DNA from: Vulcanimicrobiota bacterium
Lineage (GTDB): Bacteria; Vulcanimicrobiota; Xenobia; Xenobiales; JADMJV01
Direction: 5' to 3'
Assembly (NCBI GenBank): GCA_050250895.1
Contig: JBFWNU010000004.1
Span: 32,001-96,000 of the forward strand
DNA length: 64,000 nt
This document shows positions 41,578 to 46,394 of this stretch, one piece after another. The stretch's first letter is position 1. Each line of letters begins with the position of its first letter. The position numbers and the translations under genes were made by a program. A model generated the notes under the pieces. That model saw nothing but the letters and a program-made list of their open reading frames with translations. It was not told where the DNA came from and did no database searches.

Positions 41578-41622
41578 AGGCTACACTAGGGAGCGGGGTT
41601 GCCCGGGGCGAATCGCGGGCCC

Positions 41623-42777
41623 ATGATCGATCTTCCGCGCGGGTTTCGCGCCTGCGGTGTCCATGCCGGGCTCAAGAAAGATGGCCAGCTCGATGTGGGC
41701 ATGCTGGTCAGCGACAGCCCCTGCCGAGGCGCGGCCGTCTTCACCAAAAACCTGGTCGTGGCCGCCCCGGTCGTCTTCGACCGCCAACTGCTGCTCGACC
41801 ACCCCGAGTCTCTCGCGGGAGTCGTGCTCAACAGCAAGAACGCTAACGCCGTCACCGGTGAGCAAGGCATGCGCGACGCCGAGGCCATGTCGGCCTATGC
41901 TCAAAGGGCCCTGGCCACCGCCAATCGCATGCTGGTGATGTCGACCGGGGTGATCGGCAACCCCATGCCCATGGACAAGATCCGAGCCGGGATCGACCTG
42001 GGCGTGCCCGCGCTGGGCCCGGACGGCACCGGCTTGTCGCTAGCCATGATGACCACCGACACCCGGCCCAAGACGGCCACCGCCACCCTTTCCAACGGCG
42101 CACGCCTGACCGGCTTTGCCAAAGGCGCCGGCATGATCCATCCCGATATGGCCACCATGCTCTCGATCGTGGCCACCGACGCCGAGCTCTCCTTGACGGA
42201 ACTGCGCTCGCTGGTGGCGTGGGTGAGCGAGCATTCTTTCAACTGCATCTCGGTCGACGGCGACACCAGCACCAACGACACCTTTCTGGTGCTGGCCAAC
42301 GGCCGGGCCGGCCCCGTCGACCCCTCCGAATTCCGCGCCGCCCTACTGTCTCTAAGCCAGGATCTGGCCCGCCAGGTCGCTTTTGACGGCGAGGGAGCAG
42401 CCCACCACCTTACCATCGAGGTCGAAGGCCTGGCCGACTTCGCCCAGGCCCGAGCCATCGGTCGCACCATCGCCACCTCGCCCCTGGTCAAGACGGCCAT
42501 CTACGGACGCGATGCCAACTGGGGCCGCATCCTGGCTGCGGCCGGCCGGGCCGGAGTGCCTTTCGACCCCGAATTGGCCAACCTCTGGCTCGAAGACCTG
42601 CAGTTCCTCTCCGCCGGCCAACCCAAACTGCACGACCCCGATGTCGAACGCGACCGCCTCTCTCGCCAGGCCCTGACCATTCGCCTACAACTCGGCTCCG
42701 GCCCCGGCCGGGCCACCGTCTGGACCTGCGACCTCACCGACGACTACATCCGCATCAACGCCGAATACCGCACCTAG
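41623..42777 (+). CDS. argJ: glutamate N-acetyltransferase (ornithine acetyltransferase)
   Basis: KGAGMIHPDMATML autocleavage site, SVDGDTSTND, DANWGRI and YIRINAEYRT. Confidence 0.97.
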   Translation: MIDLPRGFRACGVHAGLKKDGQLDVGMLVSDSPCRGAAVFTKNLVVAAPVVFDRQLLLDHPESLAGVVLNSKNANAVTGEQGMRDAEAMSAYAQRALATANRMLVMSTGVIGNPMPMDKIRAGIDLGVPALGPDGTGLSLAMMTTDTRPKTATATLSNGARLTGFAKGAGMIHPDMATMLSIVATDAELSLTELRSLVAWVSEHSFNCISVDGDTSTNDTFLVLANGRAGPVDPSEFRAALLSLSQDLARQVAFDGEGAAHHLTIEVEGLADFAQARAIGRTIATSPLVKTAIYGRDANWGRILAAAGRAGVPFDPELANLWLEDLQFLSAGQPKLHDPDVERDRLSRQALTIRLQLGSGPGRATVWTCDLTDDYIRINAEYRT

Positions 42778-42814
42778 CGGCCTGCGGCCCAGGAGGTGCT
42801 CGGGCGGCCTGCGG

Positions 42815-44510
42815 TTCACCCCGAGAAATCGCGGGGTTGAACCCGGATCTAGCCACGTCACCCCGAGAAATCGCGGGGTGAACCCGGTTTCGGCCCCTTC
42901 ACCCCGAGAATCGCGGGGTGAACCCGGTTTCGGCCCCTTCACCCCGAGAAATCGCGGGGTGAACCCGGTTTCGGCCCCTTCACCCCGAGAATCGCGGGGT
43001 TGAACCCGGATCTAGCCACGTCACCCCCTAGAATCGCGGGGTGAACCCGGTTTCGGCCCCTTCACCCCGAGAATCGCGGGGTGAACCCGGTTTTAGCCCC
43101 TTCACCTTCACCCCGAGAAATCGCGGGGTGAACCCGGTTTCGGCCCCTTCACCCCGAGAATCGCGGGGTGAACCCGGTTTTAGCCACTTCACCCCGAGAA
43201 ATCGCGGGGTTGAACCCGGATCTAGCCACGTCACCCCCTAGAATCGCGGGGTGAACCCGGTTTGAGCCCCTTCACCCCGAGAATCGCGGGGTGAACCCGG
43301 TTTCGGCCCCTTCCCCCCGAGAAATCGCGGGGTGAACCCGGTTTCGGCCCCTTCACCCCGAGAATCGCGGGGTGAACCCCGGCCCGGCCCAACCCTCGAG
43401 TTGAGCGACAGCTCAACTCGCTCCCCTCTCGGAGCCCTGCTCCGCTCCCCTCTCCGCGAAGCGGCTCCCTTCTCGACGGCGCAGCCGTCGCTCCCCGTCG
43501 GCCGCAGGCCGAGAATCGCTGGGTGAACCCGGTTTTAGCCACTTCACCCCGAGAAATCGCGGGGTGAACCCGGTTTTAGCCCCTTCACCCCGAGAAATCG
43601 CGGGGTGAACCCGGTTTCGGCCCCTTCACCCCGAGAATCGCGGGGTGAACCCGGTTTTAGCCCCTTCACCCCGAGAAATCGCGGTGTGAACCCGGTTTCG
43701 GCCCCTTCACCCCGAGAAATCGCGGGGTGAACCCGGTTTCGGCCCCTTCACCCCGAGAATCGCGGGGTGAACCCCGGCCCGGCCCAACCCTCGAGTTGAG
43801 CGACAGCTCAACTCGCTCCCCTCTCGGAGCCCTGCTCCGCTCCCCTCTCCGCGAAGCGGCTCCCTTCTCGACGGCGCAGCCGTCGCTCCCCGTCGGCCGC
43901 AGGCCGAGAATCGCTGGGTGAACCCGGTTTTAGCCACTTCACCCCGAGAAATCGCGGGGTGAACCCGGTTTTAGCCCCTTCACCCCGAGAAATCGCGGGG
44001 TGAACCCGGTTTCGGCCCCTTCACCCCGAGAATCGCGGGGTGAACCCGGTTTTAGCCCCTTCACCCCGAGAAATCGCGGTGTGAACCCGGTTTCGGCCCC
44101 TTCACCCCGAGAAATCGCGGGGTGAACCCGGTTTCGGCCCCTTCACCCCGAGAATCGCGGGGTGAACCCGGTTTTAGCCACTTCACCCCGAGAAATCGCG
44201 GGGTTGAACCCGGATCTAGCCACGTCACCCCCTAGAATCGCGGGGTGAACCCGGTTTGAGCCCTTCACCCCGAGAATCGCGGGGTGAACCCGGTTTCGGC
44301 CCCTTCACCCCGAGAAATCGCGGGGTGAACCCGGTTTCGGCCCCTTCACCCGAGAATCGCGGGGTGAACCCCGGCCCGGCCAACCCTCGAGTTGAGCGAC
44401 AGCTCAACTCGCTCCCCTCTCCGCGAAGCGGCTCCTTTCTCGACGGCGCAGCCGTCGCTCCCCGTCGGCCGCAGGCCGAAAGCGCTCCCCGTCGGCCGAA
44501 AGCGCTCCCC
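42815..44510. repeat. non-coding tandem array of palindromic 40-43 bp units (REP/BIME-like)
   Basis: About 31 full plus 2 partial copies of TTCACCCCGAGAA(A)TCGCGGGGTGAACCCGGTTT(CG/TA)GCCCC; 395-bp higher-order duplication. Confidence 0.97.
43397..43512. repeat. five-hairpin cassette, copy 1 (other copies at 43792-43907 and 44388-44479)
   Basis: Five perfect stems joined by CTCCCCTCT, CTCCCCTCT, CTCCCTTCT and CTCCCCG; the third copy lacks hairpin 2. Confidence 0.92.
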
Positions 44511-44540
44511 GCTTGCCAAAGCCACCGACTTAGGCTATGA

Positions 44541-44554
44541 TTCACACGTGTGAA
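44541..44554. promoter_or_regulatory. candidate LacI-family operator TTCACACGTGTGAA
   Basis: Perfect 14-bp palindrome with central CG, abutting a TATGAT -10, ahead of the HAD-LacI operon. Confidence 0.7.
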
Positions 44555-44577
44555 ACCTCTGAAAGGAGGAGTTACCG

Positions 44578-45402
44578 ATGAGTAATAAGCCTGTGAAGCG
44601 CATCCTGGTCGCTTCCGATTTCGACAAGACCCTGAGCTTTAACGACTCGGGGCAGATCCTCAGCGACATGCTGGGAGCCGAGAACTTCGAGAAGAAAGTG
44701 TCCGGCCTATCCAAGATCAACATCGTCCAGCAGGGGGCCGAACTCGCCTATCTGCTGCGCCACGACCCCGACTTCCGCTGCGTGCGGCGCGATTTATTGG
44801 GCGAAGTGGGCCGCCAGGTCCAACTCAAACGCAACGTGCGCGAATTCGTCAATTTTCTCAGCGCCGGTGTGGAGGGTTTCCATTTCGACTTTCGCGTGAT
44901 CTCGGCCGCCCCTAGCGAGGTGGTGCGCTCCGCCCTGGAAGGCATCGTCGAGCCCGAGCATGTCCTGGGCACCGAGTTCGACTTTGACGAGCAGGGAGAG
45001 ATCTCGGCCATCCGCCGGGCCGCCGCCGGCTACGGCAAGGTGGTCATCTTGCAAGAACTCGAGGCCGACCTGGGAGTGCGACCCGACCATGTCGTCTACG
45101 TCGGCGACGGCAGTTCGGACCTGCACGTCATGATGCACGTCAACCAGACCGAGGGCCTGACCATCGGGGTCTCGCAGACTCAATACATCGTGCGAACAGC
45201 CCGCAGAACCATCTTGAGTGACAATGCCATGGCGGTGCTAGTTCCGATCCTCGAAGAGATCGTGCACATGCCAAGCCATGAGATCCGCGATGCCTTCGAG
45301 CGTCACGGCCTGCTGCTCACCGACTGGGAGCGGGCCCGCACCGATTGGCTCACCATCGACGAAGTGCCAGCTCCACCGCTGGCGAATGCGAGTGTATTAT
45401 GA
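44578..45402 (+). CDS. HAD-superfamily hydrolase
   Basis: DFDKT (motif I), ISA, GK and YVGDGSSD; AGGAGG RBS. Confidence 0.9.
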   Translation: MSNKPVKRILVASDFDKTLSFNDSGQILSDMLGAENFEKKVSGLSKINIVQQGAELAYLLRHDPDFRCVRRDLLGEVGRQVQLKRNVREFVNFLSAGVEGFHFDFRVISAAPSEVVRSALEGIVEPEHVLGTEFDFDEQGEISAIRRAAAGYGKVVILQELEADLGVRPDHVVYVGDGSSDLHVMMHVNQTEGLTIGVSQTQYIVRTARRTILSDNAMAVLVPILEEIVHMPSHEIRDAFERHGLLLTDWERARTDWLTIDEVPAPPLANASVL

Positions 45403-46394
45403 CCAGAGTCACCATCAAGACCATCGCCGAAGAAGTGGGAGTCACCCACGGCACCGTCTCGCGCGCCTTGCGCGGCGATAGCCGAGTGCGTTCCGAGACG
45501 GCCGAGGCCGTGCAAGAGGCGGCCGAGCGCCTGGGCTATCGTCCCAGCCGCTCGGCTCGAGCTCTGCGCACGCGGCGCACCGGCAATCTGGCCATCGTGG
45601 TCAGCTATGTCCACGATCCGTTCTATTCCGAGGTGGTCCAGGCCATCCACGACCGCCTCTTCCCCCTCCACTACAACCTGTTCATGGCCGCCACCGAGTT
45701 CGACCTCGAACGCCAGGCCGAGGTGGCTCGCACCCTGGGCGAAGAGCTGGTCGACGGAGCCTTTGTCTGCTGTCTTCCCGGCATGACGCCCCCCTTCCAG
45801 AAACTGGCCCAGACGGTGCCGCTGGTTACCATCAACTGCGATCCGACCATCTATCCCTACGGGGTGGTCCATCAAGATCGCGAGGCGATGCGTCTGTGCT
45901 ATCAGTATCTGCTCGAGCGAGGCCACCGCAAGATCGGCTACCTGGGCGCGGTCAACGGCGGCAACGCCGAACGCGCCCGACGCGGCGCTTTCACCGACGC
46001 GGCCGCGGGCATGGCCGTGCCGGCCTTGATGCGAAGCGCCGAAGACGTCAAGGTCGAGGCCGGCGAGGCGGCCATGCGAACCTGGCTCGATCAGGGAGTC
46101 AACGACATGACCGCTCTCATCTGCTTTAACGACACGGTGGCCATCGGAGCCATGAAGGCCTGCGCCGAAGCGGGGGTCAAAGTTCCCGAGGAACTCTCGG
46201 TTGTGGGCTTTGACGACATCGAGATGGCCAGTTACGTTCGGCCGGCCTTGACCACATTCAGCCAGCCCCGCTACGAGATGGGTCGGGCTGCCACCGAGAT
46301 GATGATGGCCCTGTTGGCCGGCAAGAGCCCCCCTGCTCCGGCTCGATTTCTCGGCAAGCTGGTCGAACGCGAGAGTGTGGCCAACGCGATCTAG
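45399..46394 (+). CDS. LacI-family transcriptional regulator
   Basis: TIKTIAEEVGVTHGTVSRAL..LGYRP..VPEELSVVGFDD..PALTT; ATGA coupling. Confidence 0.95.
   Translation: MTRVTIKTIAEEVGVTHGTVSRALRGDSRVRSETAEAVQEAAERLGYRPSRSARALRTRRTGNLAIVVSYVHDPFYSEVVQAIHDRLFPLHYNLFMAATEFDLERQAEVARTLGEELVDGAFVCCLPGMTPPFQKLAQTVPLVTINCDPTIYPYGVVHQDREAMRLCYQYLLERGHRKIGYLGAVNGGNAERARRGAFTDAAAGMAVPALMRSAEDVKVEAGEAAMRTWLDQGVNDMTALICFNDTVAIGAMKACAEAGVKVPEELSVVGFDDIEMASYVRPALTTFSQPRYEMGRAATEMMMALLAGKSPPAPARFLGKLVERESVANAI

Follow-up and report, generated by a model that had tools for sequence, protein, structure and literature searches.

We found that an intergenic stretch of 1.7 kb in the genome of a Vulcanimicrobiota bacterium is filled by about 31 small, head-to-tail, hairpin-forming repeats and flanked by two ordinary genes. 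Positions below are those of the window, the whole stretch of 64,000 nucleotides that was analysed. The array is probably one site of a dispersed repeat (family A) that is private to the lineage, non-coding and able to form hairpins, similar in general kind to the REP and BIME elements without being a member of them. Tandem Repeats Finder (TRF) placed it at 42815-44371 with a period of 41, 38.7 copies and a score of 1435, and with higher-order periods of 81 and 395. Each family-A unit is 40/41 nt long and consists of a hairpin with a 9-bp stem, TTCACCCCG-AGAA(A)TCG-CGGGGTGAA, followed by a 15-nt tail. Parsing by hand gave 14 + 6 + 11 = 31 full hairpins and two truncated units, in agreement with the about 33 hairpin units of a first-pass annotation made from the letters of the sequence. 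The tail variants listed there were all recovered, CCCGGTTTCGGCCCC 14 times, TTTTAGCCCC 4 times, TTTTAGCCAC twice, GGATCTAGCCAC 4 times and TTTGAGCCC(C) twice. That annotation had also said that the unit lengths keep no reading frame; no ORF of at least 80 aa spans the array. A coding reading of the 81-nt dimer, which corresponds to 27 codons, was rejected on the same ground.

The span is not built from a single unit type, as had been assumed at first. The array consists of three family-A blocks separated by a 136-nt module made of a second repeat family (family B), to which the segments 43377-43512, 43772-43907 and 44369-44512 belong. All features of the array are given on the plus strand. 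Sub-array 1 (42815..43376; hand parse, TRF and folds) comprises 14 units with C-type tails and is followed by module M1 (43377..43512), in which five small hairpins, one of 10 bp and four with GCA/GAA/CCT triloops, alternate with CTCCCCTCT-type linkers. Module M1 carries the C-linker strand of family B on the plus strand, has a predicted DNA fold of -37.4 kcal/mol (z -4.5) and is fused to a truncated family-A unit (43513-43542). Six further units form sub-array 2 (43543..43771). The block at 43377-43771, that is module M, the truncated unit and six units, is then repeated at 43772..44166 with 395 of 395 positions identical, confirming the duplication reported earlier and matching the TRF period of 395. 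Sub-array 3 (43938..44368) holds 11 units, and the 230 nt that end it are a near copy (226/230) of 43148-43376. The array closes with a terminal module, M3 (44369..44512), a variant of module M followed by three further family-B-type units (GCTCCCCG plus a mini-hairpin), inside which TRF detected a 20-nt period at 44474-44511.

The 9-bp stem described by the first-pass annotation is the minimum-free-energy fold both as DNA and as RNA. As DNA its predicted energy is -11.7 kcal/mol (z -3.5 and -2.7). As RNA the unit is predicted to fold stably at -17.5 and -18.2 kcal/mol, with weak z-scores for single units (-2.3, -2.0 and -0.7). Folding also predicted a mini-hairpin in the tail, CCG-GTTT-CGG, which we did not count as structure because it is lost in the variants of other arrays.

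Upstream of the array lies argJ (41599..42777, plus strand; Pfam ArgJ, E 1.1e-132), whose stop codon is 37 nt before the first unit. Downstream lie genes for a HAD-family phosphatase (44578..45402, plus strand) and a LacI-family regulator (45345-46394), both assigned by Pfam, and the neighbourhood includes genes of an Opp-type ABC transporter. A predicted promoter-like site, TTGCCA-17-TATGAT (44513..44554, plus strand), overlaps the palindrome TTCACACGTGTGAA, which occurs once in the genome, just downstream of the repeats and outside the repeat family, and is retained upstream of the HAD orthologue in the relative G003. The neighbourhood holds no cas or RAYT gene, as had been noted before, and a Y1 transposase was found nowhere in the genome. 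The array most likely matters little for its two flanking genes.

To place the array in its genome we carried out a census by a vectorised mismatch scan of the 9.5 Mb, accepting hairpins within 4 mismatches. It returned 138 copies of the 25/26-nt hairpin, of which 73 are exact. Two of the copies stand alone and the others form 12 arrays with 3-31 units each; the window array, the largest of the 12, is thus no orphan, as it had been called. The exact pattern gave 73 matches and a reversed control pattern none, so the pattern lies far beyond chance. All 12 arrays lie between called genes, nine of them between co-directional genes, and within every array the units share one orientation. Relative to transcription this orientation is mixed, with 5 arrays sense, 4 antisense, 2 between divergent genes and 1 between convergent genes. 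The flanks are as varied. Of 22 proteins scanned around 10 other array regions, 13 match unrelated housekeeping families (CysNC, CitMHS, FabH-like, GT2, PheT, PilZ, M13 peptidase, TetR, SBP_bac_5 and HisK among others) and 9 match none; no transposase, nuclease or cas family appeared among the 22, nor did the TnpA_Y1/RAYT genes that the first-pass annotation had proposed to look for beside other copies. One of the solo units, at C1:498674, sits 35 nt past a stop codon. A 1.26-kb segment between two arrays at C1:3069465-3071055 was considered as possible cargo and rejected, being single-copy with a 263-aa ORF without a Pfam family. Genome-wide, TRF reported 623 regions totalling 176 kb of the 9.5 Mb, compared with 1.3 kb in a 400-kb sample of the relative G002. 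Many of these tandem-repeat regions are hairpin arrays of this sort.

Comparison of the units separates what is conserved from what is not. Hairpins are 98.2% identical within arrays and 97.2% between arrays, whereas tails are 88.5% identical within arrays and 55.1% between them. The conserved element is therefore the 25/26-nt hairpin including its loop of 7/8 nt, which is as conserved as the stem, while the tail of 15 nt drifts, with homogenisation inside each array. Many units have a mismatch in one arm, and at base pair 6-21 recurrent variants introduce mismatches that are left uncompensated. Of 99 pairs of adjacent units, 68 combine a short with a long loop (48.7% expected). Arrays grow in place by duplication of multi-unit blocks, as seen in the 81-nt short-loop/long-loop dimers and in the 395-bp block. 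They are mosaics with other private modules, lying between unrelated housekeeping genes in either orientation: family A is interleaved with module M (family B) in the window and with GCCGGGGCTTCGCCGGGC-type modules in the G-tail arrays. The recent expansion suspected by the first-pass annotation has its signs in the exact 395-bp tandem duplication and in the array-specific tail variants.

The sister family is organised differently. Family B combines a constant G-rich linker of 11 nt with perfect mini-hairpins of at least 36 different kinds, most of them capped by GCA/GAA-type triloops. There are 39 family-B arrays in all; two with unclear GC skew were left out, and in 28 of the 37 with clear local skew the G-rich linker lies on the leading strand (p 0.0026). 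Gene orientation against the same strand measure shows no such bias (474:521). In family A the strand defined by the loop lies on the C-rich (lagging) strand in 9 of 12 arrays, a 9:3 split that is not significant.

Outside this genome family A was hard to find. The check proposed at the outset, a comparison of the unit with the genome and its relatives, found the family at its 12 arrays in the genome and, allowing up to 2 mismatches, nowhere in 40 relatives, most of which are fragmented assemblies from which arrays were possibly lost. For family B the 40 relatives gave no matches beyond those expected by chance. In the two genes that we compared, the proteins of even the genome labelled as the same genus are only 61-78% identical, so that, with relatives this fragmented, "private" is meant in comparison with rather distant relatives. 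In both G009 and G003 the HAD orthologue lies in a different gene context; the argJ contig of G001 stops 115 nt past the gene, with no repeat visible in those nucleotides, and the region that follows pheT in G001 has no tandem repeat. In two public contig collections the exact 25/26-nt hairpin had no match among genome contigs or metagenome contigs, and the 19-nt core gave 4 (genome) and 3 (metagenome) isolated single matches with no neighbouring copies, which we read as probable chance matches. At gathering score Rfam returned no match for the whole window; with the limit relaxed to E 10 it gave 15 matches, each scoring far below that level and none to a CRISPR-DR family. The suggestion that the repeat family is uncharacterised thus agrees with both Rfam and the contig collections. 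A literature search on such repeats in this lineage found no matching report among the papers listed, and we make no claim that they are absent from print.

We compared family A with REP, BIME and REPIN elements and their RAYT transposases (PMC2817692, PMC3733652). Family A and REPs have in common a short GC-rich extragenic palindrome that is species-specific and occurs more than 100 times in a genome, a position mostly between co-directional genes and a hairpin possible on either strand. The 25/26-nt hairpin in 138 copies is within the definition of a short (20-40 bp), high-copy extragenic palindrome, and the clustering of family A in arrays with other short motifs corresponds to a BIME-like mosaic of palindromic units and conserved short motifs. 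The analogy with REP and RAYT drawn by the first-pass annotation nevertheless fails at three defining features. There is no match to the RAYT family (Y1_Tnp, PF01797) in the 99.64%-complete genome, with a control set that matched in 6 of 14 genomes. The unpaired GTAG/CGTC tag is missing, since family A is flanked 5' by GGGGG/CCCC and 3' by GGYCG/CCCGG; CGTC arises only in the few units that carry the GTCACCCC variant, of which the window has one at 42857 and three of the GTCACCCCCTAGAA form. Finally, the units run head to tail in one orientation per array, in contrast to the inverted REPIN doublets and alternating BIMEs. Family A also differs from REPs in occurring almost always in arrays (2 of 138 hairpins are solo) and in having a loop as conserved as the stem. 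A further point of comparison are the MIRU minisatellites of mycobacteria, intergenic tandem repeats of 40-100 bp in operons, present at tens of loci and changing in copy number by slippage. Family A resembles them in being tandem, intergenic and dispersed and differs in that its unit is dominated by a perfect hairpin.

Taken together these data lead us to propose that solo family-A units would be seeded downstream of genes, as the one such solo copy suggests, and that slippage during replication, or unequal recombination from one unit to another, would then multiply them. That stem and loop are invariant from locus to locus could reflect recognition by a putative trans-acting factor that disperses or maintains the family, or else a very recent spread. 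The hairpins would act at the DNA level, as single-stranded DNA hairpins or as cruciforms, and what they do to adjacent genes, for instance by giving argJ a structured 3' end or by adding distance in front of the HAD promoter, would be a by-product and not a dedicated function. Two points count against this explanation. The conservation of the loop goes beyond the need of a purely structural or neutral satellite and could indicate a specific function, and no mobilising or binding protein for family A was identified. To our knowledge no hairpin-repeat system independent of RAYT and unlike Ssn/SRM has been described, and a bolder version of our proposal, which we put forward tentatively as an unlikely one, is that both families here form such a system. 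The family-A stem-loop would be the recognition site of a putative trans-acting protein that seeds solo units behind genes, where they are then amplified. For family B, the constant linker, the at least 36 mini-hairpins, the leading-strand bias and the lack of above-chance matches in relatives would point to a replication-fork-linked process, for example template switching on nascent single-stranded DNA, which would create and perfect palindromes de novo and not by copying.

A different route to dispersal, rather unlikely on present evidence, is that family A is the non-autonomous mobile element of an unrecognised enzyme acting on single-stranded DNA hairpins, possibly a divergent HUH or GIY-YIG nuclease, by analogy with REP/RAYT or NTS/Ssn. 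NTS/dRS3 (SRM) repeats are oriented hairpin repeats and Ssn proteins GIY-YIG single-strand nucleases; the repeats are reported to cluster round genes and to be recognised as single-stranded DNA by a small trans-acting protein (PMC11893778). The invariant stem and loop, the solo unit, the strand bias of family B set against unbiased gene orientation and the position of the loop-defined strand on the lagging strand in 9 of 12 arrays are all consistent with such an enzyme, and the genome has one small single-domain GIY-YIG gene (95 aa, UPF0213-like, C1:966465-966752), the only such small gene and a candidate for it. However, its best solved relatives are UPF0213 proteins, and no hairpin repeats were found in the 1.5 kb examined around it, the place where an ssn gene (cd10448 GIY-YIG) would have them. 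The published SRM motif (PMC11893778) matches the genome at 77 places, all of them outside the family-A arrays, and is not enriched (5 on C2, 10-15 in shuffles); the canonical 5' flank is CTTC and not CGTC. The lack of a PF01797 match and the non-significant 9:3 split also argue against this reading.

It is unlikely, too, that the arrays serve as RNA elements, transcribed with their neighbours so that the hairpins would stop exonucleases coming from the 3' end, terminate transcription or give rise to small RNAs, a role put forward for REPs in 3' UTRs. Here the array lies upstream of the predicted HAD promoter and not inside it, so it would form a 3' extension of argJ. The predicted stability of the RNA fold and the nine arrays between co-directional genes are in line with this, and the REP literature proposes roles in mRNA stabilisation and termination (PMC3733652; bioRxiv 10.64898/2026.03.23.713779). 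Against it, the loop-defined strand is sense in five and antisense in four of the co-directional cases and two arrays are divergent, and this mixed orientation argues against a strand-specific RNA role. Intrinsic-terminator-like sites number 0 in 42600-44700, with 3.3 expected, and the weak z-scores of single units, the absence of an Rfam family and the uncompensated variants at base pair 6-21 point the same way.

We consider it quite unlikely that the inverted repeat TTCACCCCG / CGGGGTGAA is a duplex-DNA binding platform, read by a dimeric protein as the F-plasmid centromere sopC is by SopB, with a possible role in nucleoid organisation, segregation or supercoiling. The sopC centromere has 12 direct repeats of 43 bp, and in each of them SopB binds an inverted repeat of 16 bp (PMC3177203); the architecture of family A, tandem direct units of about 41-43 bp with one inverted repeat each, matches that description. 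Invariant arms and loop over 12 loci beside drifting tails are what a protein-read sequence would be expected to leave, and the arrays show no orientation dependence. Unlike sopC, however, family A is chromosomal, forms 12 dispersed arrays and has 9-bp arms 7-8 nt apart. A centromere of that kind would have parA/parB-type neighbours and one locus per replicon, and we found no par, sop or other DNA-binding partner gene beside any array and 12 arrays of very unequal size (3-31 units). In addition many units are mismatched in one arm, and one would not expect a core site of chromosome organisation to be so young as to be missing from 40 of 40 relatives searched.

The first-pass annotation had also called the repeats CRISPR-like. 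Family A shares with CRISPR a regular spacing, a hairpin-forming repeat, which may recall type I-E repeats by its shape, and a short variable intervening segment. The genome has a true CRISPR array of about 185 repeats with a period of 73-75, compared with 41 for family A, and a 36-nt repeat unrelated to it; that array is on C13, with cas1 on C11, and the window array is on a different contig. The 14-16-nt tails of family A are variants of one consensus and not unique, acquired spacers, its arrays occupy 12 loci, and the window array has neither adjacent cas genes nor a repeat in common with a cas-linked array. A search for Cas6e (PF08798) gave no match, a weak negative since the control set matched only in Thermus. 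Of the CRISPR-like description the shape stands; as far as its sequence tells, family A is not a CRISPR relative.

Several contigs of the assembly end in repeats. Scaffold gaps elsewhere in it fall inside tandem arrays, so that the assembled lengths of arrays cannot be trusted completely. An assembly artefact, in which the perfect 395-bp duplication would be the assembler's product, or a degenerate CRISPR array is very unlikely: the family recurs at 12 loci, each with its own tail variants and with unique flanks, and so is no artefact as such, the only N gap of the array's contig (C4 position 238924) is about 163 kb away, and tails, true CRISPR repeat, Cas6e and Rfam all speak against CRISPR.

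If our reading of family A as a private dispersed repeat holds, this would be another bacterium that accumulates private hairpin repeats with no RAYT or Ssn found to explain them. In practical terms such arrays break assemblies and can be mistaken for CRISPR arrays or coding repeats. More generally the finding would sharpen the old question of how REP-like elements originate, spread and stay uniform, for which this genome may offer a workable system, with 12 arrays, a solo copy, an invariant stem-loop with which a binding protein could be captured, and a sister family that shows a strand bias.

The array lies in the intergenic region 42778-44577, between argJ (41599-42777, + strand; Pfam E 1.1e-132) and a gene for a HAD-family phosphatase (44578-45402, + strand). 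Tandem Repeats Finder (TRF) placed it at 42815-44371 with a period of 41, 38.7 copies and a score of 1435, and reported 81 and 395 as higher-order periods; parsing by hand gave 14 + 6 + 11 = 31 full and 2 truncated units of a repeat that we call family A. The array described in the first-pass annotation is thus confirmed, and every tail variant listed there is present in it. Each unit combines a hairpin, TTCACCCCG-AGAA(A)TCG-CGGGGTGAA (stem of 9 bp, loop of 7 or 8 nt), and, after it, a tail of 15 nt that in this array is most frequently CCCGGTTTCGGCCCC. Folded as DNA, the unit has this stem as its minimum-free-energy structure (-11.7 kcal/mol, z -3.5 and -2.7). Three stretches (43377-43512, 43772-43907 and 44369-44512) belong to a second family, B, with five small hairpins and CTCCCCTCT-type linkers. 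Family-A arrays grow via duplication of multi-unit blocks; here 43377-43771 is identical to 43772-44166 at 395 of 395 positions and 43148-43376 matches 44142-44369 at 226 of 230, small homopolymer differences between block copies being uncertain because scaffold gaps elsewhere in the assembly fall inside arrays.

Upstream of the array are Opp/Dpp-type ABC transporter genes, a 229-aa ORF without a Pfam family and argJ; downstream the HAD gene is followed by a gene for a LacI-family regulator. No cas, transposase or nuclease gene was found among these neighbours, in accordance with the earlier statement that the window holds no cas or RAYT gene. A promoter-like site, TTGCCA-17-TATGAT (44513-44541), directly follows the repeats, which puts the array after argJ and before the HAD promoter. 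It overlaps a palindrome, TTCACACGTGTGAA (both together 44513-44554), that occurs once in the genome and precedes the genes for the HAD phosphatase and the LacI-family regulator. In one relative (G003) the orthologue has a near-identical palindrome upstream of it (about 1451-1466 of the stretch L033), and TTCACACGTGTGAA probably serves the LacI-family regulator as its operator. No intrinsic-terminator-like sites were predicted in 42600-44700.

The label "orphan" given to the array does not hold. In the assembly (9.50 Mb, 63% GC, 17 contigs numbered C1, C2 and so on, the window being C4:32001-96000) the 25/26-nt hairpin has 73 exact copies, where a reversed control has none, and with 35, 13, 7 and 10 further copies at 1, 2, 3 and 4 mismatches the family comprises 138 hairpins, in 12 arrays and 2 solo copies. 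The arrays hold 3-31 units each, that of the window being the largest, with copy numbers that are not fully reliable because many scaffold gaps, 10 or 100 N long, interrupt tandem arrays of this genome (C1:519998, 1772685, 3250981 and 3456139; C3:363292 and 676382; and others). Several contigs also start or end in repeats (C3:1-5557, C4:1-320, C5:6-340 and C12:1-1831). Unit orientation is uniform within each array. Read in the orientation set by the loop, the tails fall into two types, with GGYCGRTTTCGGGGG found in 9 arrays and CCCGGTTTCGGCCCC-like tails in 3, the window array included. In several G-tail arrays 2-3 units are interleaved with modules of 100-140 nt in which GCCGGGGCTTCGCCGGGC-like motifs abound.

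The conserved element of family A is the stem-loop. We profiled 86 units whose tail is 15 nt long and whose hairpin has no more than 2 mismatches, excluding 52 hairpins that were more diverged or were followed by longer modules. Stem and loop are 97-100% conserved at nearly all positions, lower conservation being confined to the optional A of the loop and to base pair 6-21 (92% and 86%); for tail positions the range is 41 to 99%. Tails are homogenised within arrays and divergent between them, with a pairwise identity of 88.5% within arrays against 55.1% between arrays, where hairpins give 98.2% and 97.2%. In 68 of 99 adjacent pairs a short loop sits next to a long one (48.7% expected); the p value of 7e-5 makes this look stronger than it is, because units are not independent.

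The arrays are mosaics that sit in ordinary intergenic DNA in either orientation. By gene calls that are crude and based on third-position GC, 9 of the 12 lie between co-directional genes, 1 between convergent and 2 between divergent ones. Beside the 10 array regions other than that of the window, 13 of 22 flanking proteins matched unrelated housekeeping families (CysNC, CitMHS transporter, FabH-like enzyme, GT2 transferase, GAF protein, PheT, PilZ, M13 peptidase, TetR, NHL protein, SBP_bac_5 and histidine kinase), 9 matched no family and none matched a mobile-element family. Across the 12 arrays the loop-defined strand coincides with the C-rich one 9 times, not a significant excess. One solo unit, at C1:498674, lies 35 nt past a stop codon and has the usual GGGGG and GGTC flanks. 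A 1.26-kb segment between two neighbouring C1 arrays was considered as possible cargo and rejected, being single-copy with nothing recognisable in it.

Among the DNA searched, family A is confined to this lineage. A search tolerating up to 2 mismatches counted the hairpin 122 times in the studied genome and found it in none of 40 relatives, of which 1 shares its genus, 14 share its family, 24 its order and 1 its class; the exact hairpin was found neither in a species-representative genome collection nor in a metagenome collection. A 19-nt core gave 4 and 3 single matches there, isolated and lacking further copies beside them, which we read as chance. The distance to the "same genus" genome is large (ArgJ 61% and PheT 78% identical); its assembly is fragmented, and it had no repeats at the two loci compared.

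The genome as a whole carries 623 tandem-repeat regions totalling 176,363 bp (TRF), against 9 regions and 1,264 bp in a 400-kb sample of one relative (G002), which may be a short-read assembly that has lost its arrays. Clustering of short-period arrays ranked family B first (60 arrays, 12.8 kb) and family A second by length (12 arrays, 7.9 kb), followed by a number of smaller ones whose hairpin repeats have periods of 22, 23 and 41 nt. Arrays of another private family of 41-nt hairpins, TGCGCCGCACAC...GTGTGCGGCGCA (stem about 11 bp), lie at C3:362210-363291, C3:769571-771177 and C2:354075-355035, and GACTTCCGCACGGAAGT-type palindromes form the centre of repeats of 123-131 nt. An element of about 930 bp that is present in multiple copies and has GACACACGTGTGTC-like palindromic ends (C1:370377-371308, C1:3569829-3570761, C2:281638-282569, C3:16337-17268 and C3:148967-149899) may be a small IS or MITE-like element.

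Family B joins a constant linker, GAGA(A/G)GGGAGC, to a variable and mostly perfect mini-hairpin, for example at C1:3173609-3173964 and C1:519787-520160. Perfect stems of at least 4 bp occur in 98 of 206 adjacent-linker units (36 in shuffles), and stems of at least 6 bp in 40 (0 in shuffles). The 98 comprise 36 distinct stems, and the most frequent loops are TGC, TTC and TTT, or GCA, GAA and AAA on the C-rich strand. Matches to the linker-hairpin-linker pattern number 156 here and 0 or 1 in each of the 40 relatives, which is the control level. Of 39 arrays, 22 are co-directional, 12 convergent, 1 divergent and 4 at contig ends; against a background of 3254:1083:1088, family B is depleted in divergent intergenic regions (1/35). 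The G-rich linker lies on the G-rich (leading) strand in 28 arrays, on the other in 9 and is unclear in 2 (p 0.0026), a bias that genes do not show (474:521). A sharp GC-skew switch on C1 at about 1.15 Mb (about -0.04 to +0.03, 50-kb windows) is probably the replication origin region. Template-switch correction of quasi-palindromes is an established mechanism in other bacteria; it could keep the diverse stems of family B perfect and would require no selection on structure.

We favour, with moderate confidence, the view that family A is a REP/BIME-like satellite, in which solo units would have been seeded first and then amplified via slippage or unequal recombination. Set against the REP/RAYT definitions in PMC2817692 and PMC3733652, it has the palindrome and the high copy number but lacks the GTAG/CGTC tag and the inverted pairing, and no RAYT gene was found. 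The invariance of stem and loop could reflect a sequence-specific trans-acting factor or a very recent spread. Spread by an unrecognised hairpin enzyme is the best placed of the alternatives, if rather unlikely. RAYT (PF01797) gave 0 matches in the genome, in a search whose control was positive in 6 of 14 genomes, and the SRM motif of the Ssn/NTS system, as described in PMC11893778, matched 77 times, 0 of them in family-A arrays and with no enrichment. The sole small GIY-YIG gene found (C1:966465-966752; L077:1489-1776) encodes a single-domain protein of 95 aa (Pfam E 1.5e-13) whose closest solved relatives are the UPF0213 proteins 1zg2 and 1ywl, and no hairpin repeats flank it.

A role as RNA is unlikely, the loop-defined strand being sense in 5 and antisense in 4 of the co-directional cases; the minimum-free-energy RNA fold is the same 9-bp stem. 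No ORF of at least 80 aa spans the window array. That the repeats form a platform for proteins binding duplex DNA appears quite improbable; the unit architecture resembles that of a sopC-type centromere as described in PMC3177203, but family A, unlike sopC, has no partition genes nearby and occupies 12 loci.

The genome does contain a true CRISPR array of about 185 repeats (36-nt repeat, period 73-75) at C13:80702-94436, the contig end, and the same repeat opens C11 (C11:1-2261), so that the two contigs are probably adjacent; C11 carries cas1 within a 545-aa ORF, possibly a fusion. Its repeat is unrelated to family A, whose tails, as the first-pass annotation had held, are not unique spacers; no match was found to Cas6e, in a search with a weak control, or to Rfam CRISPR-DR families even at E up to 10, and an artefact or a degenerate CRISPR is a very improbable account of the window array. 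We return to family A as a REP/BIME-like satellite: the window array is real; its kind is ordinary, its particulars are new.
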